Virus record (IMG/VR): IMGVR_UViG_3300028920_000043 | Coordinates: 1-64,000 of that record | DNA from: a virus | DNA: 64,000 nucleotides | Direction: 5' to 3' (one strand) | In this document: positions 5,854-35,825 of the stretch, piece by piece | Numbering within the stretch: the first letter of the stretch is position 1 | How the letters are laid out: each line of letters starts with the position of its first letter | Position numbers and translations under genes: made by a program | The notes under the pieces: generated by a model | What the model was told of the DNA's origin: nothing | Database searches by the model: none | What the model saw: the letters and a program-made list of their open reading frames with translations, nothing else

Positions 5854-6166
5854 CTTCTTCCTCATCCAAAAGATCGTCCTCTTCTTCTTCTTCGACCTCT
5901 TCGGATTCGACCAGTTCTTCATCCGCCTGCTTCATCAAATCATCAATCCCTTTTTCCAAGGATTTGATTTCCTTCAGCAACGTCTTCTCTTCCGTTGCTA
6001 TCTTCTTATCCAAATCCTTTTCACCGACTTTGAATTTCTTCAGCGTTGCATTGCACTCCTTCAATCCCTTTTCGACTTCGCCAAGCCGACCCTCAAGTTG
6101 AGCTTTGCGCGTCTTAGCACTCTCAACTTTATCGCATAATTCGTTATACCGTTCTTGGAATCCCAT
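5846..6166 (-). CDS. Coiled-coil protein (likely middle piece of the split Rad50)
   Basis: Heptad pattern with acidic tail; coupled to both neighbours. Confidence 0.55.
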   Translation of the reverse strand: MGFQERYNELCDKVESAKTRKAQLEGRLGEVEKGLKECNATLKKFKVGEKDLDKKIATEEKTLLKEIKSLEKGIDDLMKQADEELVESEEVEEEEEDDLLDEEEDE

Positions 6167-7128
6167 TATCGCTCCACCTCCATAAGACTTGTTACTTTGT
6201 TATGCAGCCTGAAATCCTTGTATTTCTTTTTGAGTCCCAGTTTCTTGATACCCAAATCCACCAGATCATCCAGATCATTGACATTCATCTCTTGCCCTTC
6301 CTCCACGATCTCCTCTGCCAATGCCTTTATCTCTTCTTCGGTGTCGTCTATTACGTCATCAGCCTCTGCTACCCATACATCCTTCTCTATTGGTATCCTC
6401 ATCCATTTATGTGTCCAGTTATCATTGGTGACTCTCAATATTAAAAATCGCGGCTGATACTTTTTAAGATCAATTGAATCTCTACCAATCGTTCCCAACT
6501 GAAATACATACTTACCCGGTACATACTCCTCAACGAAGAAATCAGGACTGTGGACATGTCCATTGATAATGATGTCCGGTTCTATTTTCTTTGCTGCTTT
6601 CTTCAAATCACTCAGGAGGATATGATCATCATAAGGAGGACGACTCTTGAATAATGCCGCATGAGTAATCAATATTCTGAGCTGTCCGTCTTCCGTTGTG
6701 AACCGCGACTCAGTGAAGTTGTCGATTGCATTATATCCTGCCTTGTAACTGACGCCGCGAATCTCAACCAGATCATTTATGTAGGGCTTCTTGTCCAGCC
6801 ATCTCACCTTGCCAGAACGCAACAAAGCGCCGATGGCTTTGTAGCGCTCACTCTTTACCTGGTAGCCTGTTATATCGTGATTACCAATAATAGAATAAAT
6901 CCGACCTTTCAAACAGCCGAGCAGTTTATTCAACTCAGAAAATGAATAAGAATGATGTAGCTTTCTATGGAACCAATCACCAGTGCTGAATAAATCTGAT
7001 ACTCGCACTTTCTTTCTGGCGCTTTGAATATATTCCAGCTTTGCCAATAGCTGATCACCATAATCTTCTGAGCGCCGTGCCGGTGGTCGGATTGAATAAT
7101 GTAGATCGCCAAAGAATCCTAGGTTCAT
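6166..7128 (-). CDS. Mre11/SbcD-like metallophosphoesterase nuclease
   Basis: GDLH, GDWFH, GNHD, TH and GHVH motifs. Confidence 0.88.
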   Translation of the reverse strand: MNLGFFGDLHYSIRPPARRSEDYGDQLLAKLEYIQSARKKVRVSDLFSTGDWFHRKLHHSYSFSELNKLLGCLKGRIYSIIGNHDITGYQVKSERYKAIGALLRSGKVRWLDKKPYINDLVEIRGVSYKAGYNAIDNFTESRFTTEDGQLRILITHAALFKSRPPYDDHILLSDLKKAAKKIEPDIIINGHVHSPDFFVEEYVPGKYVFQLGTIGRDSIDLKKYQPRFLILRVTNDNWTHKWMRIPIEKDVWVAEADDVIDDTEEEIKALAEEIVEEGQEMNVNDLDDLVDLGIKKLGLKKKYKDFRLHNKVTSLMEVER

Positions 7129-8231
7129 AATCCCATATCCTCCACCAGATACTTTTTGCATACATCAATAAATGGTTTCTTTGTCAAAGGACATATTCCT
7201 TGCTTCTGCACCAGCTCTGATACAGCACCGATCTTTGCTTCTAAGGATTCGGTACAATCATTCAGTTCTTTCTTTAAGAATATTTGTCTCTGGCGTCCTT
7301 TTGTAAGATTGGCACTTATAGATTGCAGTCTTGAAAAGTGCTCAATCTGTTTATTCAATGTCTCAAAGTTTTCTAATACTAAAGCCAATCCACCTATGAC
7401 TCCCCCAGTGAATTGGAATTCTTCTGCAAGCTGATCACTTTTCTTTTTTGCCTCAATGATGGAGCTTAACTGACGAGCCTTACCAATTATACTCGCCGCA
7501 TCAATAATATACTTGCCCAAGGATACAATCAGCGTCTTGATCCTTATTGAATCCTCACGATGTCTTTTTAATAATTCGCGTATTGCACGAAGTTGTCTCA
7601 ATCGTTTTCTCTTACTTTGGATTTGTACCAACTTCTTGTCAATCTCAGTGGCCTTCTCTCTTATGTTTGTCAAACGCGGCAATGGTTCAAGATCAATATC
7701 CAACTCCGCCTTTTGCTTCTCAAGCATGTCTTGATCTTGTTTCAGATGCCGCAACTTGAGCACCGCTTGACGTGAGCCTTCCAGGATCATATTGATACCG
7801 GGAATCAATGATGTCACTATCTTCGCTGAATCCTGCTCGCTTTGCGAAACAATAAAGTGAGATTCAAACTGATCAATGAAGTTAAGGCGCTTGACCACCT
7901 TCTGACCAAAATCTATCTCTTTCAATCCATGCACGTCAGAGGCTTCTTCAGGACACGATTGACCAACATTGGTAAATGGTTTCTTGCCAACCGTGTACTT
8001 ATTTATGCCCTTTCCTTTTTCCCACTTCACTTTATTATCAATAGAAACCATAGATGATTTCTCACCATGAGTAACGAAATCAATACCGCGAGTGTTGAAA
8101 GCAAAATCACGCAGAGCACGAAAGAAATTGGTTTTACCAGAATCACTGTCACCGAAGATGACATTAATTCCGCCCATCTCTAATTCAATGTTCTTTAATG
8201 ATCGATAGTTTTTAATCTTTACATTGTCCAT
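7125..8231 (-). CDS. Rad50/SbcC-like ABC ATPase, N-terminal half
   Basis: IKNYRS, Walker A GDSDSGKT, Q-loop DQF, coiled coil ending in hook-like CPLT. Confidence 0.85.
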   Translation of the reverse strand: MDNVKIKNYRSLKNIELEMGGINVIFGDSDSGKTNFFRALRDFAFNTRGIDFVTHGEKSSMVSIDNKVKWEKGKGINKYTVGKKPFTNVGQSCPEEASDVHGLKEIDFGQKVVKRLNFIDQFESHFIVSQSEQDSAKIVTSLIPGINMILEGSRQAVLKLRHLKQDQDMLEKQKAELDIDLEPLPRLTNIREKATEIDKKLVQIQSKRKRLRQLRAIRELLKRHREDSIRIKTLIVSLGKYIIDAASIIGKARQLSSIIEAKKKSDQLAEEFQFTGGVIGGLALVLENFETLNKQIEHFSRLQSISANLTKGRQRQIFLKKELNDCTESLEAKIGAVSELVQKQGICPLTKKPFIDVCKKYLVEDMGL

Positions 8232-8506
8232 TACTGCACCCGTGTCTTGGTACCGCCGTAATATTCCTTCCGCCGTTTGTTGAGATCAATCTTTTCTTTC
8301 TGCGCGAAGAACTCACAAACTTTAATAACTCCCTCCGGCAGTATGATATAGGTCCCCTCACTCAATACCAACTCAACGTTCATCTGCAGAAGCTTGAACA
8401 CGTTCATCTGGAGACGACCATAAGGTATTCCCAAGAACTTAGACAGCTCAGGAATAGTGACAGGGTACTGCGCTTCTATTGGATTTCCTACTATCGGGAA
8501 TTTCAT
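8231..8506 (-). CDS. Small HTH-like protein
   Basis: VTIPELSKFLGIP HTH-like start; GGAGGAG RBS. Confidence 0.5.
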   Translation of the reverse strand: MKFPIVGNPIEAQYPVTIPELSKFLGIPYGRLQMNVFKLLQMNVELVLSEGTYIILPEGVIKVCEFFAQKEKIDLNKRRKEYYGGTKTRVQ

Positions 8507-8535
8507 TTTCTTCTCCTCCCTAAAATCTAAAGGAT

Positions 8536-8575
8536 AAAAAGTGGGCTGGATGATTTACCCGGAACCACCCAGCCC
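8536..8575 (-). terminator. Intrinsic terminator downstream of recA
   Basis: Minus strand: GGGCTGGGTGGTT/AATCATCCAGCCC stem followed by ACTTTTT. Confidence 0.65.
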
Positions 8576-8623
8576 TTATGCGAGATGCTCTGTTTGGAGG
8601 AGGCCGAACAGCTCGCGTTTTTT

Positions 8624-9628
8624 CTATTCCATTATTGCATCAAGAATCAACTTCTTATTCTTTTCCTTTCTCAATACGCTACTACATACCTCCAGTCTCG
8701 TACTTCCGATGTTCTTACCTTTATAATAAAATCCCTTCCCTTTTCCTTCGGTCTTTTCATCGAATACACGATAGTCAACTGCCGCCCTCAACATCTCCTC
8801 TTCTTTTTCGATTCCAATATTGGGCGTCACCAACCAATTGAAGCTCTTCTTTCTTCCCGATATCTTGTTCTTGAGTAGCTTGCACGTAACGAACTCGCTG
8901 TTCTCGAATCCGCGTACTCGTTTAGCATCACTACCACTCTTGCTCAACCGTGCTCTGATGGCTGACCGAAACTTTATTGACTGACCGCCCGGTGTCGTTT
9001 CAGGATTTCCGAATACCACACCGATCTTCATTCTTGTTTGATTGATAAAAATACCAACTATCTTTTTTCTGCGGATGAGCCCCAACGTCATCCGCAGGGC
9101 CTGTCCGATCTTTCTCGGCACCACGCCCATATGATGATCGCCAACCTCTCCCATCAGCTCTGCTTCCGGAACCATTGCGGCAATAGAATCTATAACAACA
9201 CATGATATTGGCAAACTGCCCAATGCATCAATCGTTAGATTCCAGCCCTGTTCCAAGCTCTCTGGTTGCGATAACAAGAAATGCTTCCTTGATATATCGC
9301 ATAAGTTGGCGGCATATCCCAGGTCAATGACATCCTCATAATCCAAATACAACGCTTTCTTTGTTGGATCCGCACGTTGACACGCACTAACGAATTCCAA
9401 TGCCAATGTAGTCTTCCCTGACTCCTCCGGTCCAAATATCTCCATGATTGTTCCGCGGGGCAATCCACCCAGGAACGCATCCCACTGCGCCAGTCCCGAT
9501 GGATAAAAATCATAGCGTTTGCGCTCAGTTATGATAGCATTCTGATACTTCTTATTCAGCAATTCCAAAACTTGTGCTTCAGTCTTTCCATCAAACTCAC
9601 TACCTTTTTTCTTTTTCTTTGCCATCAT
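8624..9628 (-). CDS. recA: RecA recombinase
   Basis: GGLPRG..EIFGPEESGKTT, VIDSIAAMVP, FINQTRMKIGVVFGNPETTPGG. Confidence 0.97.
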   Translation of the reverse strand: MMAKKKKKGSEFDGKTEAQVLELLNKKYQNAIITERKRYDFYPSGLAQWDAFLGGLPRGTIMEIFGPEESGKTTLALEFVSACQRADPTKKALYLDYEDVIDLGYAANLCDISRKHFLLSQPESLEQGWNLTIDALGSLPISCVVIDSIAAMVPEAELMGEVGDHHMGVVPRKIGQALRMTLGLIRRKKIVGIFINQTRMKIGVVFGNPETTPGGQSIKFRSAIRARLSKSGSDAKRVRGFENSEFVTCKLLKNKISGRKKSFNWLVTPNIGIEKEEEMLRAAVDYRVFDEKTEGKGKGFYYKGKNIGSTRLEVCSSVLRKEKNKKLILDAIME

Positions 9629-10141
9629 TTACCTTTGAGTTAAGATTCTAATCAAATCCGAATCCCAGCAGGCTATGCCGACCGCCAAGGCGTCATACTG
9701 CGCTTCTCGCTGTTTGGCATTGCCCTTCACATTTACATGAAAGAACTTCTTCACCGCCTTCTCGATCTGCAACTTGCTTGCATTGTTAGAGCCAGCAACG
9801 ATCTTCTTGATCTCCTGTGGCGTGCGATATGTGCAAGGCAAATCACGCGCCTCTGCTACCGTTGCTACGCATCCCTTCGCAATGCCCAGCCCTTTCGATG
9901 CCAATGCCGATTGGGATCCAGTCGGAACTTCAATGCATAGGCCTTGAATCTTATGCTTGTCGATGACACGTAACAAGCGCATACCAAGATAACGAGCTCT
10001 GTCCATATCGTCCTCAGATACACGTATCTTTTTATTCTTGGCCTTCTTCGTCTCGATCCAACCAGCGGCAATCGGTTTCTTTGCCTTGTCGAGTACGGCA
10101 TAGCCTGTGAGAGTAAAACTCGGATCAAGTAAAAGAATCAT
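9629..10141 (-). CDS. RuvC-like Holliday junction resolvase
   Basis: LDPSFTLTGYAV, IEVP, PQEIKK...NASK, YDALAV. Confidence 0.85.
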   Translation of the reverse strand: MILLLDPSFTLTGYAVLDKAKKPIAAGWIETKKAKNKKIRVSEDDMDRARYLGMRLLRVIDKHKIQGLCIEVPTGSQSALASKGLGIAKGCVATVAEARDLPCTYRTPQEIKKIVAGSNNASKLQIEKAVKKFFHVNVKGNAKQREAQYDALAVGIACWDSDLIRILTQR

Positions 10142-10143
10142 GT

Positions 10144-11457
10144 TTATCTTCTGCCGCGTTTGGTTTTCTTCTTCGCCGTCTTCTTTGCTGTTTTCTTTTT
10201 GGCTGTCTTCTTCGCGGCTTTCTTTTTCGCAACCTTCTTCTTGGCCGTTTTCTTTTTCTTTGCTGCTTTCTTCTTTCGTGTCGGAGCTGGTTCTTCTTCC
10301 TCTTCTTCGAGATCATCGTCTAAGTCATCATCCAGCTCTTCCTCTTCTTCTTCTTCCTCCTCTTCATCCTCGAGATCATCCTCTAGAGCGTCTTCGTCTT
10401 CTTCGTCTTCTTCGAGATCGTCCTCATCTTCCGACTCTTCTTCATCATCCGATTCTTCCTCTTCCTCTTCCTCATCATCCAGCTCTAGGTCGTCATCAAG
10501 CTCTTCTTCTTCTTCTTCGTCCTCATCTTCTTCTGTTTCTTCTTCGTCTTCCTCCTCCTCTTCGTCTTCGGACTCTTCCTCATCGTCGTCCTCCAGCTCT
10601 TCGTCTTCGTCTTCTTCCAACTCTTCCTCTTCGTCTTCTAGATCGGCATCTTCCTCGAGATCATCCTCTTCCTCTTCCTCTTCCTCTTCCGACTTCTTCT
10701 TTTTCTTTGAAGCTTTTTTCTTTTTCTTTTTCTTGGATGATGATTCATCGTCCATATCCATATCATCCTTCATCTCGTCATCCTCAAAGAAGTCTTCGCC
10801 TTCCTCCGGTGCGGTGTCACTGTCCTTCCGCAGACGTTCAAGCTCGCGATCCAAGAACTCTTCCATGTCGTTCTTGTGTTTGTTATATCGCTTGGTGAAT
10901 GCTTCATTCTTCGCGACCATTGAACGTTCACCGAGCAGTGGGATGAGCGTGAGCTTTTGCTTCTGCTCATCCGCACAGGTCACCACCCAATCACGCGAGA
11001 GGCAAATCTTACGCGCCTTCTCAATTGATATATTGTGTTCACTGGCGAATGTCTTGATTGCTTCATTGAGCGCCCTCATCTTGTCAGGGCCGTAGCCCCA
11101 TTTCATAATGCGACCGATTCTCTCCTTCTTTGATTTGCCCTCTTCTATTGTTTCATCATACACAGGCTTCCAAGCCTTTCGTGCATGATAATCCTGTTCC
11201 TTGAGCTGGCCAACCAAAGCCACCATTGCACCAAACTTGCGGGATACCGGAGAATCATCCCCAAGTGGGCATTCAGCGCAGAACTCATCCTCTGAGCAAC
11301 GGACGCTTCTGTTTTTGATCTTGTTGTAGTGCATATCATAGACAACAGGACGCGCCGTGAGCAATCGAATACGATCCACCAATCCTACTTTTGCTTTGTA
11401 GAATTTCGTATAGGTGCCGACTGCACTGTCATCACCATAATCCACTTTCCGTGCCAT
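10144..11457 (-). CDS. gp32-like single-stranded DNA-binding protein with a very long acidic tract and H1-like basic tail
   Basis: RIRLL..P..MHY..C..CAECP (Zn-type SSB pattern); more than 130 D/E-rich residues; KKTAKK repeats; adjacent to ruvC/recA. Confidence 0.6.
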   Translation of the reverse strand: MARKVDYGDDSAVGTYTKFYKAKVGLVDRIRLLTARPVVYDMHYNKIKNRSVRCSEDEFCAECPLGDDSPVSRKFGAMVALVGQLKEQDYHARKAWKPVYDETIEEGKSKKERIGRIMKWGYGPDKMRALNEAIKTFASEHNISIEKARKICLSRDWVVTCADEQKQKLTLIPLLGERSMVAKNEAFTKRYNKHKNDMEEFLDRELERLRKDSDTAPEEGEDFFEDDEMKDDMDMDDESSSKKKKKKKASKKKKKSEEEEEEEEDDLEEDADLEDEEEELEEDEDEELEDDDEEESEDEEEEEDEEETEEDEDEEEEEELDDDLELDDEEEEEEESDDEEESEDEDDLEEDEEDEDALEDDLEDEEEEEEEEEELDDDLDDDLEEEEEEPAPTRKKKAAKKKKTAKKKVAKKKAAKKTAKKKTAKKTAKKKTKRGRR

Positions 11458-11470
11458 ACTTCAAATCCTC

Positions 11471-11513
11471 CTGGTTCAAAAGGTTTCACGCATGAAAGCT
11501 AATCGACTAGCTC
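11471..11513. repeat. Dispersed palindrome, copy 1 (core 11483-11498)
   Basis: CTGGTTCAAAAG-GTTTCACGCATGAAAG-CTAATCGACTAG. Confidence 0.9.
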
Positions 11514-12015
11514 AATTTGAAAACTCACCGCCCGACCAGCTTATATTATGAAGATTGCAAAACAGTTTTATTTGCTGTGTTGATCCTTGCTTCCGTATCT
11601 CACAATCCTTAACAATGTTTCTTGCCATTTCTTCAAGCGCTTTTAATTTCGATAGCGCCATCTTCAGCTCATCCAGCTCTCGCACCTCCCCTCTCATCAA
11701 ATAATCAGCCATGTCTTCCTTCTCTCTCTTCGTATGCTTCAAACGTATTTCTTTATGCTCACGAAGAAGAACCTCGCGTCCTATTTTTAATATTGATTTC
11801 TTATCCTCATATTTGTGTTCCGCCAATTGTTTATGCTTAAGAACATAGTTGAGAATATTTGTTGCACGAGAATGGGCCGATATGACCTCATAAACTTTTT
11901 CTCCAAACTCCTCAACTGTTGCTTCATTGAGATCTTGAAAAAGGCGGACCTTCGATATGGTCTGTAGTTTGTTTATTACTTTCTGCTCTGCAGAAGTCCA
12001 ATGACGATCCGCCAT
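11512..12015 (-). CDS. Helical coiled-coil protein, possibly a UvsY-like recombination mediator
   Basis: All-helical, 167 aa, next to the SSB-like gene; function inferred from context only. Confidence 0.4.
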   Translation of the reverse strand: MADRHWTSAEQKVINKLQTISKVRLFQDLNEATVEEFGEKVYEVISAHSRATNILNYVLKHKQLAEHKYEDKKSILKIGREVLLREHKEIRLKHTKREKEDMADYLMRGEVRELDELKMALSKLKALEEMARNIVKDCEIRKQGSTQQIKLFCNLHNISWSGGEFSN

Positions 12016-26865: not shown

Positions 26866-29295
26866 CTATTTCTTCGTCTTTACGATTCTATTATCTTTCC
26901 ATTCAGCAATCTTATCTCCCCAGTTCCGCATAATCTCAATATCAATCTCTAACGGAACTATCAACCAAGGAAATTCGAACTGCTCCATCTCTTCCTTCAG
27001 CATTTTACAACACCACTTCACTTCGTTTTTTGGCACATCCAATACCACCGAATCGTGAATAGTAAATACTAATCGTGATTTCTTTTTCTCTTTCTGTATT
27101 CGTAATATAATTCTATCTAGAGCCATCAATGTAATATCAGATGCTGTTGACTGAATTACATGATTAACTGCCATCCGTTGAGCCTCTGCTCGTTTGAACT
27201 TATTATCTGATCTAATATCAGGCAAGCGCCGTCTGCGTCCGAATAAACTGGAAACATAAATCTTCTCTTTAACTGTCCTATGAATACGTCCGATATATCT
27301 TTTTACTCCTGCATAACGCACAAAGTAATCTCGTCTGAATTGCTCAGCGCGGTCCACTGATATCTTAAGACTCTGGGCTAATCCTCTTGCCTGCCGTCCA
27401 TAGTTTAATCCGAAACTGACCGCGCCCTTCGCTTCCTGTCTCTGATCTTTTGTTACTTCATCATACTCAACGTTGAACATAGCCGCCGCGGCCATTCTAT
27501 GAGCATCCAAGCCCTCTTTATAGATCTTAATCAATCTCTCATCCTTCGCGGCGCATGCCATTATCCTCAACTCCAATTGAGAATAATCAGCATTGATTAT
27601 GTAGTTCCCTTCACGCGGCCGCACCATCCTCTTGATTTCTTTGTCTCGCGGAAAGTTCTGACTGTTCGGCTTCTCCGAGGACAGCCTACCCGTTACTGTC
27701 TTGCATAAGTTATAAGTGGTATGGACTCTACCATCCTCACCACGCCAATCAAGTGCTGGCCCTATATAGGTCGAAAGCATTTTATTTACTTTCGATAATT
27801 TTATAAGAAGTGTAATTAGTTTTGGATATTTATTCTGAAATAATTTTAATGCCTCAACTGATGTTGAAGGCAATCCAGAATCCGTTCTGTGCTCTGGAGA
27901 CTCAGGACACTTCAGTTCCTTATAAATCAAATAGCGCACTTGCTGATCCGAGTCAGGATTAAAGCGCTTCTTGAAATGCATTCCAGTTCTTTTAACCGGA
28001 TCCAAATGCCACAGCATGGACTGTGCTCTCTTCTGAGCTAACGAATACTTTCTAGTTAATCTTGAAATGTGATCCACGTCCAATTCAATGCCAGTCAGTT
28101 CCATGAATCCCAATGCTCTACTTGCCGGCATCAATATGTCACTCATTACTCTGAAGAACTTCTTGTCCACAGACAATGCCTTAAGCTCTAGTTCCAGTAT
28201 CCGAAATGTAGCATCAACATCTGCACAGTTATAACAAAGTAATTTATCTTCAGGTACCGAATCCAATCGGTCCTTATAGGGCTGGAGCTCCTCATCATAA
28301 TTTCCCATATCCGTATATAGTCGCGCTAACTGTTTCAAGCTAGGCATTGCATAAGTCTCATCCATCAAGTAATGCCCAAGCTGTGTATCCCATTGACAAT
28401 ATCCAACCGTCACTCCAAACTTGAAAAGATACTTACAATCGAACTGCGCGTTATGCCCTACCAACTTTCCTTTTCGTTTCTTAAAAAATAAATTCAACCA
28501 GCGAAGTCTTTTCTTGTAGGACAAAGCGCCGATAGTTGATTTCTTCAATAAGAATCCTGTGCCTGTTCTGGATTTCGTGGAAAATGCAATAGATAATAAT
28601 CTGGCTCTGCTTGCAAGGGGATCCAATCCTACAGTTTCTATGTCAAACGTTATCCAATTCTCTTTCCTTACCAATTGAACTAAGAAACGTTTTACTTCCG
28701 CATCGGATTCTAATATAGTATAGTTTCTCTTTCCCTGTGTCGCTTGTCCTTTTCCTGTTTGTAAGTAACGCTTCACCAACTTCAAATCTTTTATTACTGA
28801 ATCCTTAGCAGACGCATTATACAAAAGATATGCCGGATGAAATGTTGCAAATAATTTAGCGCCTTCAAACGTTCCGAGATCCTCCAATCGTTGTTTTGAA
28901 ATCCCAGTACGGCCTGTCAGTGCTTGTAAAGGAGTGTCTCCTAGCATCACTACCACTTTCGGTTTATAATCTCTGATTTCTTTTTTCAATCTGTCGAGAC
29001 ACGCCTTGATTTCTTTTTGCTTTGGTTTTCTATTATTCTCTGGTCTGCATGCCACCGCATTTGTAATATAGATCTTGGAAAGATTGAACTTCAGTTCCTT
29101 TATTAATTTTTTCAACATGTTTCCTGCGTCACCGATGAATACCTTTCCTTTAATGTCCTCATTCTTTCCCGGAGCTTCCCCCACAAACATGATGTCTGGA
29201 TGATCCGTGCATCCGCGTCCTTGAATATTAGGAGTCTTACACGTCTTATATAAATCGCACTTCATACAATCTGATCTAACATCTATGAATGGCAC
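26866..29295 (-). CDS. Family A DNA polymerase with N-terminal family-4 uracil-DNA glycosylase domain and 3'-5' exonuclease
   Basis: UDG: CxxC..C, GEAPG, C-RP-NR-P, FHPAYLL. Exo: FDIET, GHNAQFD, YNCADV. Pol: TGRLSS..PN.QN, DYSQLELR, HDS. Confidence 0.95.
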   Translation of the reverse strand: MPFIDVRSDCMKCDLYKTCKTPNIQGRGCTDHPDIMFVGEAPGKNEDIKGKVFIGDAGNMLKKLIKELKFNLSKIYITNAVACRPENNRKPKQKEIKACLDRLKKEIRDYKPKVVVMLGDTPLQALTGRTGISKQRLEDLGTFEGAKLFATFHPAYLLYNASAKDSVIKDLKLVKRYLQTGKGQATQGKRNYTILESDAEVKRFLVQLVRKENWITFDIETVGLDPLASRARLLSIAFSTKSRTGTGFLLKKSTIGALSYKKRLRWLNLFFKKRKGKLVGHNAQFDCKYLFKFGVTVGYCQWDTQLGHYLMDETYAMPSLKQLARLYTDMGNYDEELQPYKDRLDSVPEDKLLCYNCADVDATFRILELELKALSVDKKFFRVMSDILMPASRALGFMELTGIELDVDHISRLTRKYSLAQKRAQSMLWHLDPVKRTGMHFKKRFNPDSDQQVRYLIYKELKCPESPEHRTDSGLPSTSVEALKLFQNKYPKLITLLIKLSKVNKMLSTYIGPALDWRGEDGRVHTTYNLCKTVTGRLSSEKPNSQNFPRDKEIKRMVRPREGNYIINADYSQLELRIMACAAKDERLIKIYKEGLDAHRMAAAAMFNVEYDEVTKDQRQEAKGAVSFGLNYGRQARGLAQSLKISVDRAEQFRRDYFVRYAGVKRYIGRIHRTVKEKIYVSSLFGRRRRLPDIRSDNKFKRAEAQRMAVNHVIQSTASDITLMALDRIILRIQKEKKKSRLVFTIHDSVVLDVPKNEVKWCCKMLKEEMEQFEFPWLIVPLEIDIEIMRNWGDKIAEWKDNRIVKTKK

Positions 29296-29314: not shown

Positions 29315-29360
29315 GAGCTAGTTGGTTAGCTTTCATGCGTGAAAGCTTTTGAACTAGTTC
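29315..29360. repeat. Dispersed palindrome, copy 5 (core 29330-29345)
   Basis: CTAGTTGGTTAG-CTTTCATGCGTGAAAG-CTTTTGAACTAG. Confidence 0.9.
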
Positions 29361-30219
29361 ATTTCGTAGATTGCTTGATCTTTGCAAAGCACGCGAGCAA
29401 TTGAAGCAGTCGATTTGTTCCCAAACTCATTCTATAATCTGCTTCCGCAACATGAATAAGCATCTTTGGATTCTTGAGCGTCAGCACTTCCCTGTGTAAC
29501 TGATTCAAAATCAAATCCGGATCGCTCGCGTTCTTATACACGAAGGATTGGAACGCGGCAAACGTCATCTTCAATAACTCCTTGTCCGACTCCACGTCTT
29601 TATTGTACCCGGACTCGACCAGATTGAGGGCTCTGCGTAAACTGCCGTTTGCTTTTTTCGCAATTCGCTTTACTTGATCCTTCGCAATTCGTTTTTCTAG
29701 ATTTGGATTCACCCTCTTCCACAAATACACAGCGATGTCTCGCTCAGCCAGATCTTCAAAATGGAACTGAGCGCATCGGTCACGGATCGGTGGTATGATC
29801 TTCTCCAGATAATTCGTTGACAGAATGAAGCGGCACGTTTCATAATAGTCTTCCATGACTCGCCGCATTGCTGTCTGTGCGTCTCGTGTCAACGCTTCGA
29901 CTTCATCCAGGAAGATGATCTTCGGTTTGTCGCTGCCCACCGTTCTCGCCTTCGCGCGCTGTTGCACCAGTCCCCGAATAACATCAATGCCGCGGTCACT
30001 GGATGCGTTCATATCATAGAAGTTCGATTTGTAATTCTCTCCGAATATCGTTCTGCCTATGATATGCGCTACCGTTGTTTTCCCAACACCAGGACTTCCA
30101 TAGAAAAGTAGATTGGGAATTTCTCCCTTCTTCTTTATCATCAATCGTATTTTCTTAATGATGTCCTGATGACCCCCGACCTCATCAAATGTCTTGGGTC
30201 TAAATTCCTCTGTAAGCAT
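29359..30219 (-). CDS. Replication factor C small-subunit-like clamp loader
   Basis: EEFRPKTFDEV, PNLLFYGSPGVGKTT, NASSDRGIDVIR, LDEVEALT.DAQ, CRFIL..NY..KII.PIRDRC. Confidence 0.93.
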   Translation of the reverse strand: MLTEEFRPKTFDEVGGHQDIIKKIRLMIKKKGEIPNLLFYGSPGVGKTTVAHIIGRTIFGENYKSNFYDMNASSDRGIDVIRGLVQQRAKARTVGSDKPKIIFLDEVEALTRDAQTAMRRVMEDYYETCRFILSTNYLEKIIPPIRDRCAQFHFEDLAERDIAVYLWKRVNPNLEKRIAKDQVKRIAKKANGSLRRALNLVESGYNKDVESDKELLKMTFAAFQSFVYKNASDPDLILNQLHREVLTLKNPKMLIHVAEADYRMSLGTNRLLQLLACFAKIKQSTK

Positions 30220-30773
30220 TTTAACCCCTTTCCTATCCTGTACTGGTATCGTATAAAGCCACGCGCCGGTATTGGGCGTACTCCAAATGCCAAGAACTCA
30301 TAAAACCATTCCGGTGACTTCTTATGAAGAATCTTCTCATCCAAATACATCAGAAGATTTTCATTTCGTATCTTATCGATGTTTGACGCCATCCAATTAA
30401 ATAAAAGCAATGGTGGTGGTTTCTTGTCAAGTAAATATTTAAGAACTGACTGCCTATCTTTGCTTTTGAATACTGTATTCAAACACTCAAATATATCTAC
30501 TGACTCTCCCCACTTATTATGCTCCATTACTGAAATGCTTTTTGGAAGACGTTTCAGCTTCTCACGATTCCGCACAAGCAAGACAACATTCATCTGCGCG
30601 TTCTCAATGATCCACTTGATGTCCTTGGCATTTATTTTCAGGTCATCACAATCTACAAACCATCCTTTTACTTCTATGATGGAACGCAGACGAAAGACAT
30701 CCTTCCGGAATGCCGAAAGACGTTTGAATCCCTCCGGCATTTTATGATCACCCACTATTATCTTTACGCTCAT
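30141..30773 (-). CDS. Putative clamp-loader accessory subunit (degenerate RFC-large/gp62-like)
   Basis: Lies between clamp and RFC-small; DIFECL..VF..KDR and P.LLFNW..SN recall the RFC-large collar; no Walker A. Confidence 0.5.
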   Translation of the reverse strand: MSVKIIVGDHKMPEGFKRLSAFRKDVFRLRSIIEVKGWFVDCDDLKINAKDIKWIIENAQMNVVLLVRNREKLKRLPKSISVMEHNKWGESVDIFECLNTVFKSKDRQSVLKYLLDKKPPPLLLFNWMASNIDKIRNENLLMYLDEKILHKKSPEWFYEFLAFGVRPIPARGFIRYQYRIGKGLKCLQRNLDPRHLMRSGVIRTSLRKYD

Positions 30774-31582
30774 TCCCAAGGCCTCTTCACTGGCTCATTG
30801 ACAATATAGACAAATCTGCATATCCCATCCTGTCCCTTGATATGCATTGCCGTTCTATTGAGAAATCGAATCTCAACCGACTCACCACTTATGCATCCCA
30901 AAGTTTCTGCCAGACCAAACTCATAGTATGAATCTGTGTCTGAGCATTGAAGCTTTCCAAATAACTGAGTGATGGTGTCATTATCCCTTCTGATCACCAC
31001 GCTCAACTTTCCTTTCGATTCAAGGAAATGAAACGACTGCTTGCCGATTGCATCCGAGTCGCTTATCAATGCCTTCATGCTGGAAACCGGAATGATCAGC
31101 TTGTCTGATTTCTTGAAATTCAACTCCCCTACCTTTTTAGTTTTCAGAATAAGGGGCTCATACTGCAAGGGTGCCGCGGCTATATGACTATCAATCTGGT
31201 CTTCTTTGTTGATAGTCAAATCTGCACGCTTGCCCTTCTGCCCTATGGACAAACGAGAGCCGCTTAGTTTCAAATAAACCTTTCCTTCAAATCTATCCAG
31301 TATCTTTTGCAGATAATCGATTCCCGGAACAGGAATATGACCATCGCCGACCGTCTCCGCTTTTAGTGAGACATTAAACACCACAACTCCCTGAACACAA
31401 ATACCGAACGTGCTCAGCATACCCTCCCCGATATGCAATAAGCAATCCGATATGACACCAGAGACCGAGATCTTGCTGAAGAACTTTTTGAGATCAGCAA
31501 CATCTGCTGTTGCCTTAAGCTCTTCGCGTGCCGATGTGGTTTTCTTTTTTACAACCTTCTTCTTTGTTTTCTTTTTGACCAT
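30770..31582 (-). CDS. PCNA-like sliding clamp with Lys-rich N-terminal arm
   Basis: About 250-aa two-domain core; LKKFFSKIS..ISDC.L.I.EG.L and GIDYLQKIL resemble PCNA; adjacent to the loader. Confidence 0.68.
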   Translation of the reverse strand: MVKKKTKKKVVKKKTTSAREELKATADVADLKKFFSKISVSGVISDCLLHIGEGMLSTFGICVQGVVVFNVSLKAETVGDGHIPVPGIDYLQKILDRFEGKVYLKLSGSRLSIGQKGKRADLTINKEDQIDSHIAAAPLQYEPLILKTKKVGELNFKKSDKLIIPVSSMKALISDSDAIGKQSFHFLESKGKLSVVIRRDNDTITQLFGKLQCSDTDSYYEFGLAETLGCISGESVEIRFLNRTAMHIKGQDGICRFVYIVNEPVKRPWE

Positions 31583-31596
31583 TACCTTCAATCCTC

Positions 31597-32493
31597 CTAA
31601 ACAAAACTTCTATAGGTTGTCGGTTCCCATTTCCATAAGCGCTCAAATTCCAAAAAGAATATTGTATTGAACTCGCATCTCATATAATAATTGACACGAA
31701 GTTCCTCAAACGGATAGCGCTCAGGATCATCAAAATATTGTTGACCCCAATCCTGTAAACGCTTCTTTATTACTTTCTGAACTTTCAATGGAAGTTTCTT
31801 TATGTATGTCTTCTCATGCTCTCTCCTTTCCGATACTATCAACCGTGTAGGTATGTTCCTAAACCAAGGACTGTAACATTCAGGAAATGTTTTCTTATCC
31901 ATGATAATAGTTCCCATCGCTGACGCTATTGTCCACGTTGTAGAATCAACTGAGAACCATGGATACTTTTTCATCAGCTCTTGAGACGTCATTCCAAATC
32001 CATGAATCCGAATGCCTTTTTCTTGAGTGATCCTAAATGCCTTGTCTAATCTTCCTATGGTTATTCGTTCCGGAACTTCGTTCTTTGCAAGACCACCAAA
32101 TCCAATATAATCATATCCGGCATCCACATACTTTTGTAAAATATCTAAATCCTCAAACGGAGGATGCCAAACGGGTAAAGGCATCAATCCTTTCTTCTCC
32201 ATGTACCGTTGATTCTTCCACGTCCCTTCTGGAGATCCGATAACATCGAGATTAACATATGTACCAATCTTATTCTTATACTCTTTTATGAACTCAATAT
32301 ACTCATCGAGATTCACTTCTTTACCACGAGTATAAGCAGAGAACGCTCCTGAGTCCAAGAAGATTTTCTTTCTCTTCTTCTTGAAGTATTTAAGAAGCTT
32401 TTTCTTCTCCAGGAAATTCTCAAGACCATTTGCATCCAAAAATCCAAGATCCTGAGACTCCCTGTGCATGGTTGCGGCAAGATAAATAATCAC
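31597..32493 (-). CDS. dpdA: DpdA-like DNA 7-deazaguanine transglycosylase (TGT fold)
   Basis: FLDSGAFS, NLDVIG, PVWH, IGFGGL, IHGFG, SVDSTTW; inside the que operon. Confidence 0.75.
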   Translation of the reverse strand: MIIYLAATMHRESQDLGFLDANGLENFLEKKKLLKYFKKKRKKIFLDSGAFSAYTRGKEVNLDEYIEFIKEYKNKIGTYVNLDVIGSPEGTWKNQRYMEKKGLMPLPVWHPPFEDLDILQKYVDAGYDYIGFGGLAKNEVPERITIGRLDKAFRITQEKGIRIHGFGMTSQELMKKYPWFSVDSTTWTIASAMGTIIMDKKTFPECYSPWFRNIPTRLIVSERREHEKTYIKKLPLKVQKVIKKRLQDWGQQYFDDPERYPFEELRVNYYMRCEFNTIFFLEFERLWKWEPTTYRSFV

Positions 32494-32498
32494 AATTA

Positions 32499-33122
32499 CT
32501 ATTCTCCCTTCTTCTTGCTCTCCCGGTACTCATTCATTACCTGGCAATTGTTGCACTCGCCGCAGGGCTTTCCTTTGACAGGGAAGAAGCAATTGAAAAT
32601 ATCATCCAGCGTGATTCCGTTCAACTCAAGCTCTTCGAATACCTCATTCTTCTTCATCTTGTCATGCCGGTTCTCCGCGAGCGGCACTCTGACTTTGACA
32701 TTGTGAATATTCAGGTAGTCCACAAGCCCTTGCATCATCTGATAGAATATCAGAGTGCTGTCGGTGTAACTGTATGGGTCTTCCTCAACGTATCCGATTC
32801 CTTTTGATCCGGAACACACTTCACCAGCATCGATGCTCGCCGCGTAGTTCAGTGCCAATGTGGTTATCAGCACGTTCCGAAAAGGAATGAATACCTTTCC
32901 CCTATCGAATTTCAAACCATCGACCTTGACCACGTGAGGAGGTGCCAACATCAAGAGATTTGAGATATGCTCGCAAGCATGAATCTCCTCAGCGATATAC
33001 GGCTGACCATAATTGACAAAGCAAGGGTATACTACCTTGCCCTCCTTCTTCAGCCGCAATGCCACCAACGCACTGTCTGCGCCTCCTGACAACTCCACTA
33101 CCGACTTGAACTTCTTTTCCAT
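32499..33122 (-). CDS. queC: 7-cyano-7-deazaguanine synthase
   Basis: SGGADS, NYGQ, IPFRN, C-terminal C..PCGECNNC. Confidence 0.88.
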   Translation of the reverse strand: MEKKFKSVVELSGGADSALVALRLKKEGKVVYPCFVNYGQPYIAEEIHACEHISNLLMLAPPHVVKVDGLKFDRGKVFIPFRNVLITTLALNYAASIDAGEVCSGSKGIGYVEEDPYSYTDSTLIFYQMMQGLVDYLNIHNVKVRVPLAENRHDKMKKNEVFEELELNGITLDDIFNCFFPVKGKPCGECNNCQVMNEYRESKKKGE

Positions 33123-34018
33123 GCCAGCATCTCCTTTGCTAAGGTTTCATAAACTTTCGGATCCGTATAATTATACGTACTGATCTGAAACTTGTCTCCT
33201 AAATAAACATTATAATAGACTGAGTAGTTTCTTGTTTTCAAATACTCAACCAGTTTCTTATCATAATCAAAAGTCAAGATTGGGGCCGGACAATCTCCAT
33301 ACCGTCCCGGCATGAATTGAAAGAAAGAACTATTGGTATCAATGATACTTCTTACTTTTTCAATATCAAAGTGAAGAAGTGATTGCTGCAATGAAAAGAT
33401 CTGAGGGATAAGTGACGTGTTTGGCGTTTGATATTTCTTCGAGTACTCGTAGATGTTACAAAGATCCAATATAGTTCCTTTGTGTCGTACCAATAGGGTT
33501 CCGGCAATGAGATCCTTCTTTATGAAAATAATTCCCATCGTGGGCAAGCCACCCAATATCTTTCCCGAAGATCCAATGATAACATCCGCATTCCAATTTA
33601 TTTCGTAATAGCCTATTCCACTCGCGTAGTCCAAAAGATTCATACCAGATACCAACTCAGGCTCTTTGAACTCGCTCTTAGATGTTTCAAACGGACAGCA
33701 GATAAAACAGTCTCCGAACTCCCAACCGTTATAATCACAATATAAGTCCATAGTCTTATGAAATCTTTTATTGAATTCTCCCCGTTCTTCTTCACTGCGA
33801 AAAGAATTCAACGAAGGACCTATAGACGCGCATACCGTTTCTATTGCTACCGTGGTGCTTCCATTGGCAAACAATATCACAAACTCATCCGGTACCCGTA
33901 ACCGATCCCGTAATAACTCAACCGTGCGCTTGTATAAATCACAGAACTCAGCAGAGCGGTGATGGTAATTGAAAATCTCACCACCATAGAAAGGCCTGTT
34001 CACACCAAGATAAATCAT
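33098..34018 (-). CDS. Class V PLP-dependent aminotransferase-like enzyme
   Basis: HHRS.EF, GSTT.AIE, DYASGIG, SSGKILGG.P..G (PLP lysine), QTPNT. Confidence 0.8.
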   Translation of the reverse strand: MIYLGVNRPFYGGEIFNYHHRSAEFCDLYKRTVELLRDRLRVPDEFVILFANGSTTVAIETVCASIGPSLNSFRSEEERGEFNKRFHKTMDLYCDYNGWEFGDCFICCPFETSKSEFKEPELVSGMNLLDYASGIGYYEINWNADVIIGSSGKILGGLPTMGIIFIKKDLIAGTLLVRHKGTILDLCNIYEYSKKYQTPNTSLIPQIFSLQQSLLHFDIEKVRSIIDTNSSFFQFMPGRYGDCPAPILTFDYDKKLVEYLKTRNYSVYYNVYLGDKFQISTYNYTDPKVYETLAKEMLAWKRSSSR

Positions 34019-34019
34019 C

Positions 34020-34910
34020 TCACTCTCCCACTAATTTCAAAAACTCGTTCCTCACTTGTGGATCGTCCCGAAAGACTCCTGTCATCGAACTGGTTACCAT
34101 CCAGCTATGTTGTTTCTCTACTCCGCGCGCCACCATGCATAAGTGCTGAGCCTTCACAACCACGCCCACTCCCTTTGGTTTCAAAACATCGTTGAGCGCA
34201 TTGGAGATCTGTGTTGTCAATCGTTCTTGTATCTGAAGACGTCTGGAAAAACATTCGACCAATCTCGCCAACTTACTGATCCCCACTACCTTTCCATCCG
34301 GTAGATATCCTATATGAATACTTCCATAGAACGGTAGCATATGATGCTCGCAATTTGAATAAAACTCAATTCCTTTTAATGCTACAATCTCATCATAGTC
34401 ACCACTTTCAGAAAAAACAGTACTGAGAATGTCCTTGGGTCTAATAAAGTACCCCCCATACAATCTATTCCATGATTTCACTACGCGCTTTGGCGTGTCC
34501 TTCAATCCTTCGCGTTCTGGATCTTCACCTATCGCTTGTAGAATTCTTATCACTGCATCCTCTGCTGGTGCTTCGTTCTGTGCGCGCTCCCAGGGAAAGA
34601 CCAACCATTCAGTCTTTCTCGATTCAAACAACGGAAAGAAGTGCGGGAATTGTCTGAAGCGCTTTCGTGTTTCTCCTGTGTCCTTTATGTCATCAATAAT
34701 CGCTACTACATTTGTAGCCTCACCTCCCATATCCACCAGATCATCCAGCAGTGTCCGATGGATCATCTTAGCGATGATTGCCGCTGGTGTTATTCCCCCA
34801 CGCGGCACGCCATAAATATATTTGATCTGATTTCCCATCGCTCGTATCTGTTCGGCTATTCTATCACACTCTTGGAATATTTCTGTCCAGTCAACGTTAT
34901 ACCTGTCCAT
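34020..34910 (-). CDS. folE: Type I phosphoribosyltransferase fused to GTP cyclohydrolase I
   Basis: N-terminal GVPRGG, IIDDIKDTGET, WLVFPWE; C-terminal GEDPEREGLKDTPKRV, CEHHMLPF, GISKLAR, LQIQERLT, HLCM..RGV. Confidence 0.92.
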   Translation of the reverse strand: MDRYNVDWTEIFQECDRIAEQIRAMGNQIKYIYGVPRGGITPAAIIAKMIHRTLLDDLVDMGGEATNVVAIIDDIKDTGETRKRFRQFPHFFPLFESRKTEWLVFPWERAQNEAPAEDAVIRILQAIGEDPEREGLKDTPKRVVKSWNRLYGGYFIRPKDILSTVFSESGDYDEIVALKGIEFYSNCEHHMLPFYGSIHIGYLPDGKVVGISKLARLVECFSRRLQIQERLTTQISNALNDVLKPKGVGVVVKAQHLCMVARGVEKQHSWMVTSSMTGVFRDDPQVRNEFLKLVGE

Positions 34911-35494
34911 TACTGCACTCCTATCATCTTTTGGGTTTGCAGACTCAACCTCCAGTCCGGGTATTCTTTACACAGCTCCACAACCTCCTCAATGTTTTTC
35001 TCTGAGCATGGTTGAAGATAGTGATATACGAACCGACCAAACTTCTTTGGAGTTGCCAAGTCCTTTCGATTCGGAAAGTCCTCGGTGACAACAATCTTAA
35101 TCTCGTCACCATAATCTTGCGCGTACTCTCCGCACTTTGGAGACACCGTGACCCAGGACAACCAATGGCCTATTCCAATGTCATATAGTCGGATTGTTCC
35201 ATTCGTTTCAATCGCTGTCTTCATTCCGTGTTCCAATCGCAATGGTTTGAGAATGTCCGCGTCCAATTGCAATGCAGGCTCACCACCTGTAAAGATAACG
35301 AAGTTACACGGGAAACTACAAATGCGCTCTATGAGCTGTTTGGCATCTGGAGATTCGTTTACCGTGTGGACTGTATCGCAAAAGTCACAGTTCAAATTGC
35401 ATCCGGCGAATCTCACAAAGACTGCGGGGCGTCCTGTATTCGCGCCTTCACCTTGCAACGAATAAAAGATCTCGGTTATATTATAACTCGTCAT
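34910..35494 (-). CDS. queE: 7-carboxy-7-deazaguanine synthase (radical SAM)
   Basis: EIFYSLQGEG..TG, CNLNCDFCDT, TGGEP, IETNGT, VSPK, LSLQTQK. Confidence 0.95.
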   Translation of the reverse strand: MTSYNITEIFYSLQGEGANTGRPAVFVRFAGCNLNCDFCDTVHTVNESPDAKQLIERICSFPCNFVIFTGGEPALQLDADILKPLRLEHGMKTAIETNGTIRLYDIGIGHWLSWVTVSPKCGEYAQDYGDEIKIVVTEDFPNRKDLATPKKFGRFVYHYLQPCSEKNIEEVVELCKEYPDWRLSLQTQKMIGVQ

Positions 35495-35825
35495 TGATCC
35501 AGGTACACTCATTGCCTTCATTCTCCTTTATAAGAACAATAGCGGCCCCCAGTTTTTTGCCAATCGTCACTGCCAGGTTTTCCATTGTCGGATTCTTATC
35601 CTTGAACTCTTCGAGATCATTGAGGTTGACGTGATCGAACCGCTTCAGGTATTCCTTAGCCTCTCTGCAATCAATCACGAAACCATGCTCATCCAGTTCA
35701 TCATCCTGGCATTGGAACGTAACTTCCAGATGATAATTGTGCCCGTGCTGATTCGCGCAAGGTCCAGAATAGTCACGCAAGAAATGCCCGGCACTTATTT
35801 CCTTAGTTACTGTTAAGTTAAACAT
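35481..35825 (-). CDS. queD: 6-carboxytetrahydropterin synthase
   Basis: AGH.L..Y.G.C...HGHNY, FDH..LND, NPT.EN. Confidence 0.93.
   Translation of the reverse strand: MFNLTVTKEISAGHFLRDYSGPCANQHGHNYHLEVTFQCQDDELDEHGFVIDCREAKEYLKRFDHVNLNDLEEFKDKNPTMENLAVTIGKKLGAAIVLIKENEGNECTWINDEL

Follow-up and report, generated by a model that had tools for sequence, protein, structure and literature searches.

A compact class V transaminase paired with a QueC-like protein in a viral 7-deazaguanine operon, and its possible part in DNA base modification

What does an enzyme that depends on pyridoxal 5'-phosphate (PLP) do in a viral operon for 7-deazaguanine DNA modification? The question is raised by a window of 64,000 nucleotides, i.e. 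positions 1 to 64,000 of the IMG/VR record IMGVR_UViG_3300028920_000043, which represents an uncultured virus (111 kb, estimated to be 80% complete). An earlier annotation made from the letters of this window (the sequence-only reading) described a class V PLP enzyme within the gene order queD-queE-(phosphoribosyltransferase-folE)-PLP enzyme-queC-dpdA. The open reading frames indeed follow this order, abut or overlap one another, and lie on the minus strand together with the surrounding genes. The gene set of a DpdA-type 7-deazaguanine system is complete (DpdA, FolE, QueD, QueE and a QueC-family gene). The described DpdA phage systems (FolE/QueD/QueE/QueC with DpdA; PMC6884629, PMC10516641) likewise have preQ0-type pathway genes and a homologous DpdA in one operon, whereas the present operon has in addition a PLP-dependent transaminase that is coupled to a divergent QueC-like enzyme.

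The pairing of the PLP gene with the QueC-like gene is kept in dozens of distant phages, and it has no real counterpart among the GenBank phage records and in the literature searched. We suggest tentatively, as a reading that falls a little short of an even chance, that the transaminase (P0001) makes a small, probably phosphorylated amine, that the QueC-like enzyme (P0151) ligates this amine to 7-carboxy-7-deazaguanine (CDG), and that DpdA inserts the product. The suggestion starts from what was observed, i.e. the gene content, the intact catalytic residues, the fold and the recurrent, reciprocal linkage of the two genes.

To our knowledge, eight 7-deazaguanine derivatives occur in phage DNA, all of which arise by QueC, QueF, amidotransferase or DpdL/M/N chemistry. 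The full-text literature search found no PLP-dependent enzyme or transaminase in 7-deazaguanine DNA modification. Hutinet 2019 (PMC6884629), Cui 2023 (PMC10516641) and Libby 2026 (PMC13329287) name no PLP-dependent enzyme in such clusters, and where the word "aminotransferase" occurs in that literature, it means the amidotransferases by which preQ0 is converted to G+. In other words, no published 7-deazaguanine tailoring enzyme is of the class V transaminase type, in agreement with the sequence-only reading. The latter had also noted that no queF, gat-queC or arcS gene is visible, which is valid for the entire 111-kb record: a search for QueF, GATase_7 and TGT/ArcS gave only a T-fold cross-match inside FolE for QueF (PF14489) and nothing for the glutamine amidotransferase domain GATase_7 (PF13537) or for TGT/ArcS (PF01702).

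P0001 as a compact class V transaminase

The match of P0001 to the Pfam family Aminotran_5 (PF00266) stays below threshold (19.0 bits, gathering cut-off 21.5), which indicates that the protein is highly diverged, and all its NCBIfam equivalog scores are far under the cut-off. The class V assignment therefore leans on the relatives, on a comparison of the family profile with the PDB, and on the fold. The relatives P0008, P0116, P0059, P0010 and the protein of locus L042 pass the Aminotran_5 threshold, the family profile finds class V transaminases in the PDB at 4e-25, and the relative P0002 matches the PhnW-AepZ model at 9e-25. An AlphaFold2 model of P0001 (pLDDT 93, pTM 0.91) is related by Foldseek to 2dr1, 3ffr, 7e7g and 1m32 with a probability of 1.00. 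All top fold neighbours in the PDB are subgroup IV transaminases (PH1308, SerC, 2-aminoethylphosphonate transaminases, AGXT; TMq 0.75-0.84). The family itself comprises 206 cluster representatives in an exhaustive HMMER search, mostly 280-330 residues long.

The PLP lysine motif SSGK, described earlier as intact, is so: Lys153 of this motif aligns with the Schiff-base lysine in the SSQK motif of 2dr1 and is kept in at least 90% of 106 family sequences, as are G53, S54, E60, E111 and T201. Residues H20, R21, D130, P246 and Y268 are invariant in these 106 sequences, Asp130 (100% conserved) being the partner of the pyridine nitrogen. The invariant positions of a 25-sequence alignment include H20, R21, G53, S54, E60, E111, D130, K153, T198, T201 and Q278. 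Judged from model and alignment, P0001 is predicted to be a working, compact class V transaminase of fold type I with its catalytic residues intact.

With SerC, PhnW/AEPT, PntC-AEPT, AGXT and PH1308 (2dr1), P0001 shares fold type I as well as the Lys, Asp, GS(G)T, ETS and TPxT motifs. It also has the His-Arg of the SHR(S/G) motif of SerC: the SHRG motif that phosphoserine aminotransferases carry falls on His20-Arg21 in the alignment. AtPSAT1 binds the substrate phosphate through the His-Arg of the SHRG loop, and R403 on the C-terminal strand binds the substrate carboxylate (PMC6043687). In contrast to the known subgroup IV transaminases, P0001 lacks one unit of the large domain, which makes it some 60-80 residues shorter, and in the sequence alignment an invariant Gln of the PLP family falls where canonical transaminases have the substrate-binding Arg of the FRIG-type strand.

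Linkage of the transaminase with a QueC-like gene

A survey of the gene neighbourhoods of homologs, which had been proposed as a check, was carried out on 47 distinct PLP family proteins fetched from viral and metagenome contigs (identical proteins removed, HAD fusion proteins outside the counts). For 30 of them, a QueC-like gene lies no more than 600 nt away; 10 have an ATP-grasp gene as neighbour, and the other 7 are found elsewhere. The PLP homolog directly adjoins a QueC-like gene in all loci of the first viral scan (10 out of 10) and stands beside one in 16 of the 21 metagenome loci; in a scan that included the distant PLP subfamily, the QueC-like gene adjoins in about 12 out of 29 loci.

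The linkage is reciprocal. In all 13 viral loci that carry a close relative of P0151 (29% identity or more), the PLP gene lies directly upstream, and none of 14 loci with a distant QueC-like gene of about 170 residues has a PLP gene. These 14 viral contigs (L076-L089) come mostly from one sample set; their QueC-like protein is 26-28% identical to P0151, and there is no PLP gene within 6 kb.

The two genes stay together while the order around them changes. The window has queD-queE-folE-PLP-queC-dpdA, and other loci have dpdA-PLP-queC-queD-queE-folE (L033), PLP-queC-queD-queE-folE-dpdA (L030), polA-PLP-queC (L004), dpdA-queC-PLP (L017), or the PLP gene on the opposite strand (L013). An apparent DpdA-PLP fusion in L033 was rejected as an artefact of a long out-of-frame reading frame in GC-rich DNA. 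Moreover, the label "QueC-adjacent" needs at least 6 to 8 changes on the PLP family tree, so the pairing is not one inherited block. The earlier suggestion that the PLP gene is functionally part of the 7-deazaguanine cluster is thus supported by adjacency in about 30 distinct loci of varied order.

In the window, one base separates the folE stop from the start of the PLP gene, and the PLP and QueC-like genes share 25 nt; an AAGGAG box stands 8 nt ahead of the queC ATG. From the overlap and this box, the QueC-like gene is predicted to be translationally coupled to the PLP gene.

The pair is without a real counterpart in the GenBank phage collection. A tblastn search of 50,697 GenBank phage records with P0001 gave no match, and P0151 matched 5 records with at most 28% identity, whereas DpdA matched 243 (identity up to 38%); the unusual part of the system is therefore the PLP-QueC pair. 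Out of three PLP family members searched in all against GenBank phages, two had no match and one had a weak partial match (26% identity over 60% of the query) on an unannotated faecal contig.

P0151 is an atypical member of the QueC family. It is above the Pfam QueC threshold and reaches only 73 bits with the NCBIfam QueC model TIGR00364 (cut-off 150). The canonical QueC signature consists of YxQxHxxE, VPxRN and YPDC (Libby 2026, PMC13329287). P0151 retains the SGGxDS P-loop (SGGADS, residues 12-17), PxRN, the aromatic-x-Asp and the full zinc motif C(x)8CxxCxxC, whose cysteines C178, C187, C190 and C193 are invariant across its clade. In the same clade Y, C, V or other residues take the place of the His in YxQxHxxE, and [YFW]xD[SC] stands for YPDC. 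The best PDB match by both sequence and fold is Cap9 (9nto_B; 7.7e-7 by sequence, 6.5e-11 by Foldseek), and the base-holding residues R86, Y115 and D117 of Cap9 align to R82, Y119 and D121 of P0151.

Cap9 and QatC adenylate CDG, and the N-terminal amine of a protein attacks in place of ammonia (10.1101/2025.04.06.647259; PMC13329287). Since both proteins ligate CDG to primary amines, there is a precedent for amine ligation by a QueC-like enzyme. P0151 resembles them in its compact QueC fold, the P-loop and the base-stacking Arg, Tyr and Asp, as well as in the chemistry proposed below. The setting is different: Cap9 (type IV CBASS) and QatC belong to defence systems, whereas P0151 is encoded in a phage DNA-modification operon with DpdA and without a CD-NTase or QatB partner (no CBASS or Qat partner gene was found in the cluster around it), and the proposed amine is a small molecule from the neighbouring transaminase.

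The putative reaction and its alternatives

The sequence-only reading had listed several chemistries for the PLP enzyme, namely transamination, decarboxylation, sulfur transfer, and the provision of an amine for ligation to CDG by QueC. The last of these fits best. FolE, QueD and QueE would make CDG, and P0001 would act on a small oxo compound that bears an anionic group, probably a phosphate, and yield the corresponding primary amine. Our first guess is the conversion of dihydroxyacetone phosphate to serinol phosphate, and 3-phosphohydroxypyruvate and glycolaldehyde phosphate are alternative substrates. P0151 would adenylate the CDG carboxylate, which the amine instead of ammonia would attack. 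The product would be an N-substituted 7-amido-7-deazaguanine that could not be dehydrated to the nitrile preQ0, and in the phage DNA DpdA would put it in the place of guanine. Within this scheme we infer which substrate is used, that the QueC-like enzyme ligates the amine, and which base finally results.

The other contexts of the PLP family bear on the substrate. In about 11 phage loci without que genes (L012, L014, L020-L022, L025-L029, L031), the PLP gene is beside a RimK-like ATP-grasp ligase gene and an HAD-like gene; these operons also carry genes for a PIG-L deacetylase, sugar transferases, an epimerase/dehydratase and a methyltransferase. A PDB search with the ATP-grasp neighbour gave no match. 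Three loci of this context lie in complete phage genomes with terminal repeats that have neither QueC nor FolE. FolE is absent from all 15 contigs searched, and all but one of them likewise lack a QueC match above threshold. Between the ATP-grasp operon of L012 and the que cluster of L013, the PLP proteins share 84% identity and thus very likely catalyse the same reaction.

A third context, that of cellular and giant-virus members of the family, is found in two bacterial metagenome-assembled genomes (MAGs; one of Melainabacteria) and in a 430-kb provirus, where the PLP gene is beside genes for an IspD/MobA-like cytidylyltransferase and a methyltransferase; a TagF-like phosphotransferase gene comes next in both MAGs only. 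This context suggests a pathway with a CDP-activated amino-alcohol phosphate. The cellular loci also have a 367-residue AtzD/TrzD-like neighbour and a thiamine pyrophosphate enzyme fused to a hydrolase. Finally, an HAD phosphatase domain is fused to the PLP domain in at least 12 cluster representatives, mostly at the N terminus and starting with a DFDG motif (C-terminal in P0074); no such fused form was found in IMG/VR.

The fusions, the other contexts and the 84% identity together point to a small phosphate-bearing metabolite, and not the deazaguanine skeleton, as the substrate of the PLP enzyme. The SerC-like His20-Arg21, the HAD fusions and the cytidylyltransferase neighbours make it probable that the product is phosphorylated as well. 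From the ATP-grasp and cytidylyltransferase contexts, the product appears to be consumed by an ATP-dependent amide ligase or by a cytidylyltransferase; that a ligase adjoins the PLP gene in two separate contexts (QueC-like, ATP-grasp) argues for an amide ligase as partner.

A comparable logic is known from the capsule of C. jejuni HS:2, where Cj1437 converts dihydroxyacetone phosphate to serinol phosphate, Cj1438C is an ATP-dependent amidoligase and Cj1435 is an HAD phosphatase (PMC12096443). There too a phosphorylated amine is made, ligated to a carboxylate at the expense of ATP and dephosphorylated, and the phage ATP-grasp/PLP/HAD operons mirror this module. By this resemblance to the glucuronamide (serinol/ethanolamine) module, the ATP-grasp operons may serve glycan decoration. 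For the que cluster the likeness is an analogy only: the ligase is a PP-loop QueC-like protein, the carboxylate is that of CDG and the phage has no HAD gene. Cj1437 itself presumably belongs to another aminotransferase class than P0001.

It is possible, if not quite an even bet, that the phage DNA carries an undescribed hypermodified base, e.g. the serinol, ethanolamine or serine amide of CDG, perhaps still phosphorylated for want of an HAD phosphatase, and that the two-enzyme module is widespread in uncultured phages. If this is true, a carbon-bearing amine joined to the C7 carboxylate would be a new route to a new class of DNA base, with a bearing on phage escape from restriction and CRISPR, on the interpretation of modified-DNA reads in nanopore and SMRT sequencing, and on enzymatic tools for DNA labelling. 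The amine-ligating activity of the QueC family, so far confined to the bacterial defence proteins Cap9 and QatC, would then also serve phages, with small molecules as its substrates. With two genes and about 1.5 kb, the module is compact.

Several points weigh against amine ligation by the pair. The fold of P0151 is about equally near to Cap9 and to two true QueC structures (TMq 0.73-0.75 for all three), i.e. P0151 is no nearer to Cap9 than to true QueC. With this fold and with SGGxDS, PxRN, aromatic-x-Asp and the zinc motif kept, P0151 could still make 7-amido-7-deazaguanine (ADG) or preQ0 with ammonia. The substrate is a guess that leans on genomic context and one conserved dyad. The apparent replacement of the canonical substrate-binding Arg is read from a sequence alignment (MAFFT) with longer relatives, which puts the family-invariant Gln278 at that position. 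No HAD phosphatase was found in the 111-kb record, so the phosphate of the amine would have to be removed by a host phosphatase or else would stay on. The base that DpdA handles would be bulkier than usual. Related phages with PolA and RFC in common account for many of the linked loci, so the synteny is in part inherited. The L012 contig has a weak QueC-like match about 12 kb from the PLP gene, which softens the argument from 84% identity.

The alternative that survives best is that the phage DNA ends up with a base already described (dPreQ0 or dADG), P0151 being an ordinary QueC and the transaminase a helper, which for example supplies nitrogen under nitrogen limitation or stabilises P0151 as a partner in a complex. 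We consider it unlikely but worth keeping in mind. It agrees with the retained P-loop, PxRN, aromatic-x-Asp and zinc motif of P0151 and its passing of the Pfam QueC threshold, with the lack of a second QueC in the record, and with a DpdA of the mainstream phage type, related to the enzymes of phages with preQ0-type bases. However, transaminases hand nitrogen to an oxo acceptor via pyridoxamine phosphate and do not release ammonia, and we know of no PP-loop amidotransferase that uses a PLP partner. In phages without que genes, pathways with an ATP-grasp ligase or a cytidylyltransferase use the same PLP family, one member of which is 84% identical, and the clade of P0151 lacks the canonical His and YPDC and remains under the NCBIfam equivalog cut-off.

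According to a second alternative, the PLP enzyme acts on a 7-deazaguanine intermediate or on the modified DNA, e.g. by converting 7-formyl-7-deazaguanine to preQ1 independently of QueF, or by decarboxylating or transaminating an amino acid appended to the base. The PLP gene does sit between folE and queC, the record has no QueF, and there are PLP enzymes that remodel the amino acids attached to thymidine in the DNA of phages (PMC8989533). A homology to those decarboxylases was rejected, since they are reported to match tryptophan synthase beta (PMC8989533), and they serve as a conceptual precedent only. We regard direct action as improbable: the cluster has no reductase able to make the aldehyde, family members occur in the three complete phage genomes without QueC or FolE, the 84%-identical ortholog is in an ATP-grasp operon, and the His-Arg dyad, the HAD fusions and the cytidylyltransferase neighbours favour a small phosphorylated substrate over a purine-like base. 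Tryptophan synthase beta has a PLP fold other than that of P0001.

It is likewise improbable that the PLP gene has nothing to do with DNA modification, serves auxiliary metabolism or the decoration of glycans, and accompanies queC owing to shuffled modules and common ancestry, because, although the family works in non-DNA contexts (operons with ATP-grasp, PIG-L and glycosyltransferase genes; cytidylyltransferase with TagF-like genes) and many linked loci are from related phages, the que context has no nearby glycosyltransferase, ATP-grasp or cytidylyltransferase to use the product, the adjacency outlasts rearrangements and is reciprocal (13/13), the two genes are apparently translationally coupled, and the QueC-adjacent label changes so often on the tree.

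Two further candidates were rejected. A cysteine desulfurase, i.e. sulfur transfer to the PP-loop enzyme, is disfavoured by the lack of a conserved Cys among the invariant or nearly invariant columns of the 25 or 106 PLP family sequences; the listed top structural neighbours of P0001 are all transaminases, with no desulfurase among them. Biosynthesis of 2-aminoethylphosphonate was rejected since the cellular loci have no PEP mutase and the phage has no such genes.

Surrounding genes and related loci

In the direction of transcription, a 5'-3' exonuclease gene is followed by queD, queE, the phosphoribosyltransferase (PRT)-like-folE fusion, the PLP gene, the QueC-like gene, dpdA and genes for a clamp, a clamp loader and a polymerase. 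The coordinates in the window and in the related loci are collected in Table 1.

Table 1. Features of the que cluster in the window and of loci with related genes
Feature	Contig	Positions	Strand	Basis or remark
QueD, 6-carboxytetrahydropterin synthase, PTPS fold, 114 aa	window	35481-35825	minus	Pfam PTPS 3.1e-27
QueE, radical SAM CDG synthase, 203 aa	window	34910-35521	minus	Pfam Radical_SAM 1.1e-9; homologs in related que clusters
Short PRT-like N terminus fused to GTP cyclohydrolase I (FolE), 296 aa	window	34020-34910	minus	GTP_cyclohydroI 4.2e-73, residues 117-294
P0001, compact class V / subgroup IV transaminase (predicted), 306 aa	window	33098-34018	minus	family profile, fold, conserved residues
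P0151, atypical QueC-like PP-loop ATPase, 207 aa	window	32499-33122	minus	Pfam QueC 8.2e-23
DpdA, DNA guanine transglycosylase, 298 aa	window	31597-32493	minus	phrog_887 1.5e-47; NCBIfam DpdA 1.6e-5
273-aa gene, weak RFC-large-like gene, RFC-small-like AAA+ clamp loader	window	29359-31591	minus	273-aa gene without family match
Large polymerase-sized gene	window	26866-29295	minus	in many related loci, homologs border the que cluster
PRT-like-FolE fusion, 301-aa form	L005 and L006	6993-7898
Non-specific endonuclease and pyrimidine-dimer glycosylase-like gene	L007	5510-7338		que-cluster type
dCMP deaminase	L017	9385-9867		que cluster
PLP gene with ATP-grasp ligase and HAD-like genes	L012, L014, L020-L022, L025-L029, L031	about 6000-12000 in each
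PLP gene in cytidylyltransferase context	L041	7824-11461
PLP gene in cytidylyltransferase context	L042	7899-12779
PLP gene in cytidylyltransferase context	L038	7267-9534
Distant QueC-like gene	L076-L089	6001-6513 in most

In the FolE fusion, the N-terminal stretch (about 110 residues) matches Pribosyltran at residues 8-50 (1.6e-4) and an NCBIfam xanthine phosphoribosyltransferase model (1.2e-8), and a similar fusion is found in two related loci. Directly downstream of dpdA come the gene without a family match and the two RFC-like genes, which are followed by the polymerase-sized gene. The recurrent neighbour families of the que loci F11, F13, F17, F53, F54, F93 and F140 have no Pfam match. Between the pathway genes, one type of que cluster (L007) carries the endonuclease and the pyrimidine-dimer glycosylase-like gene, and another cluster (L017) carries the dCMP deaminase gene.

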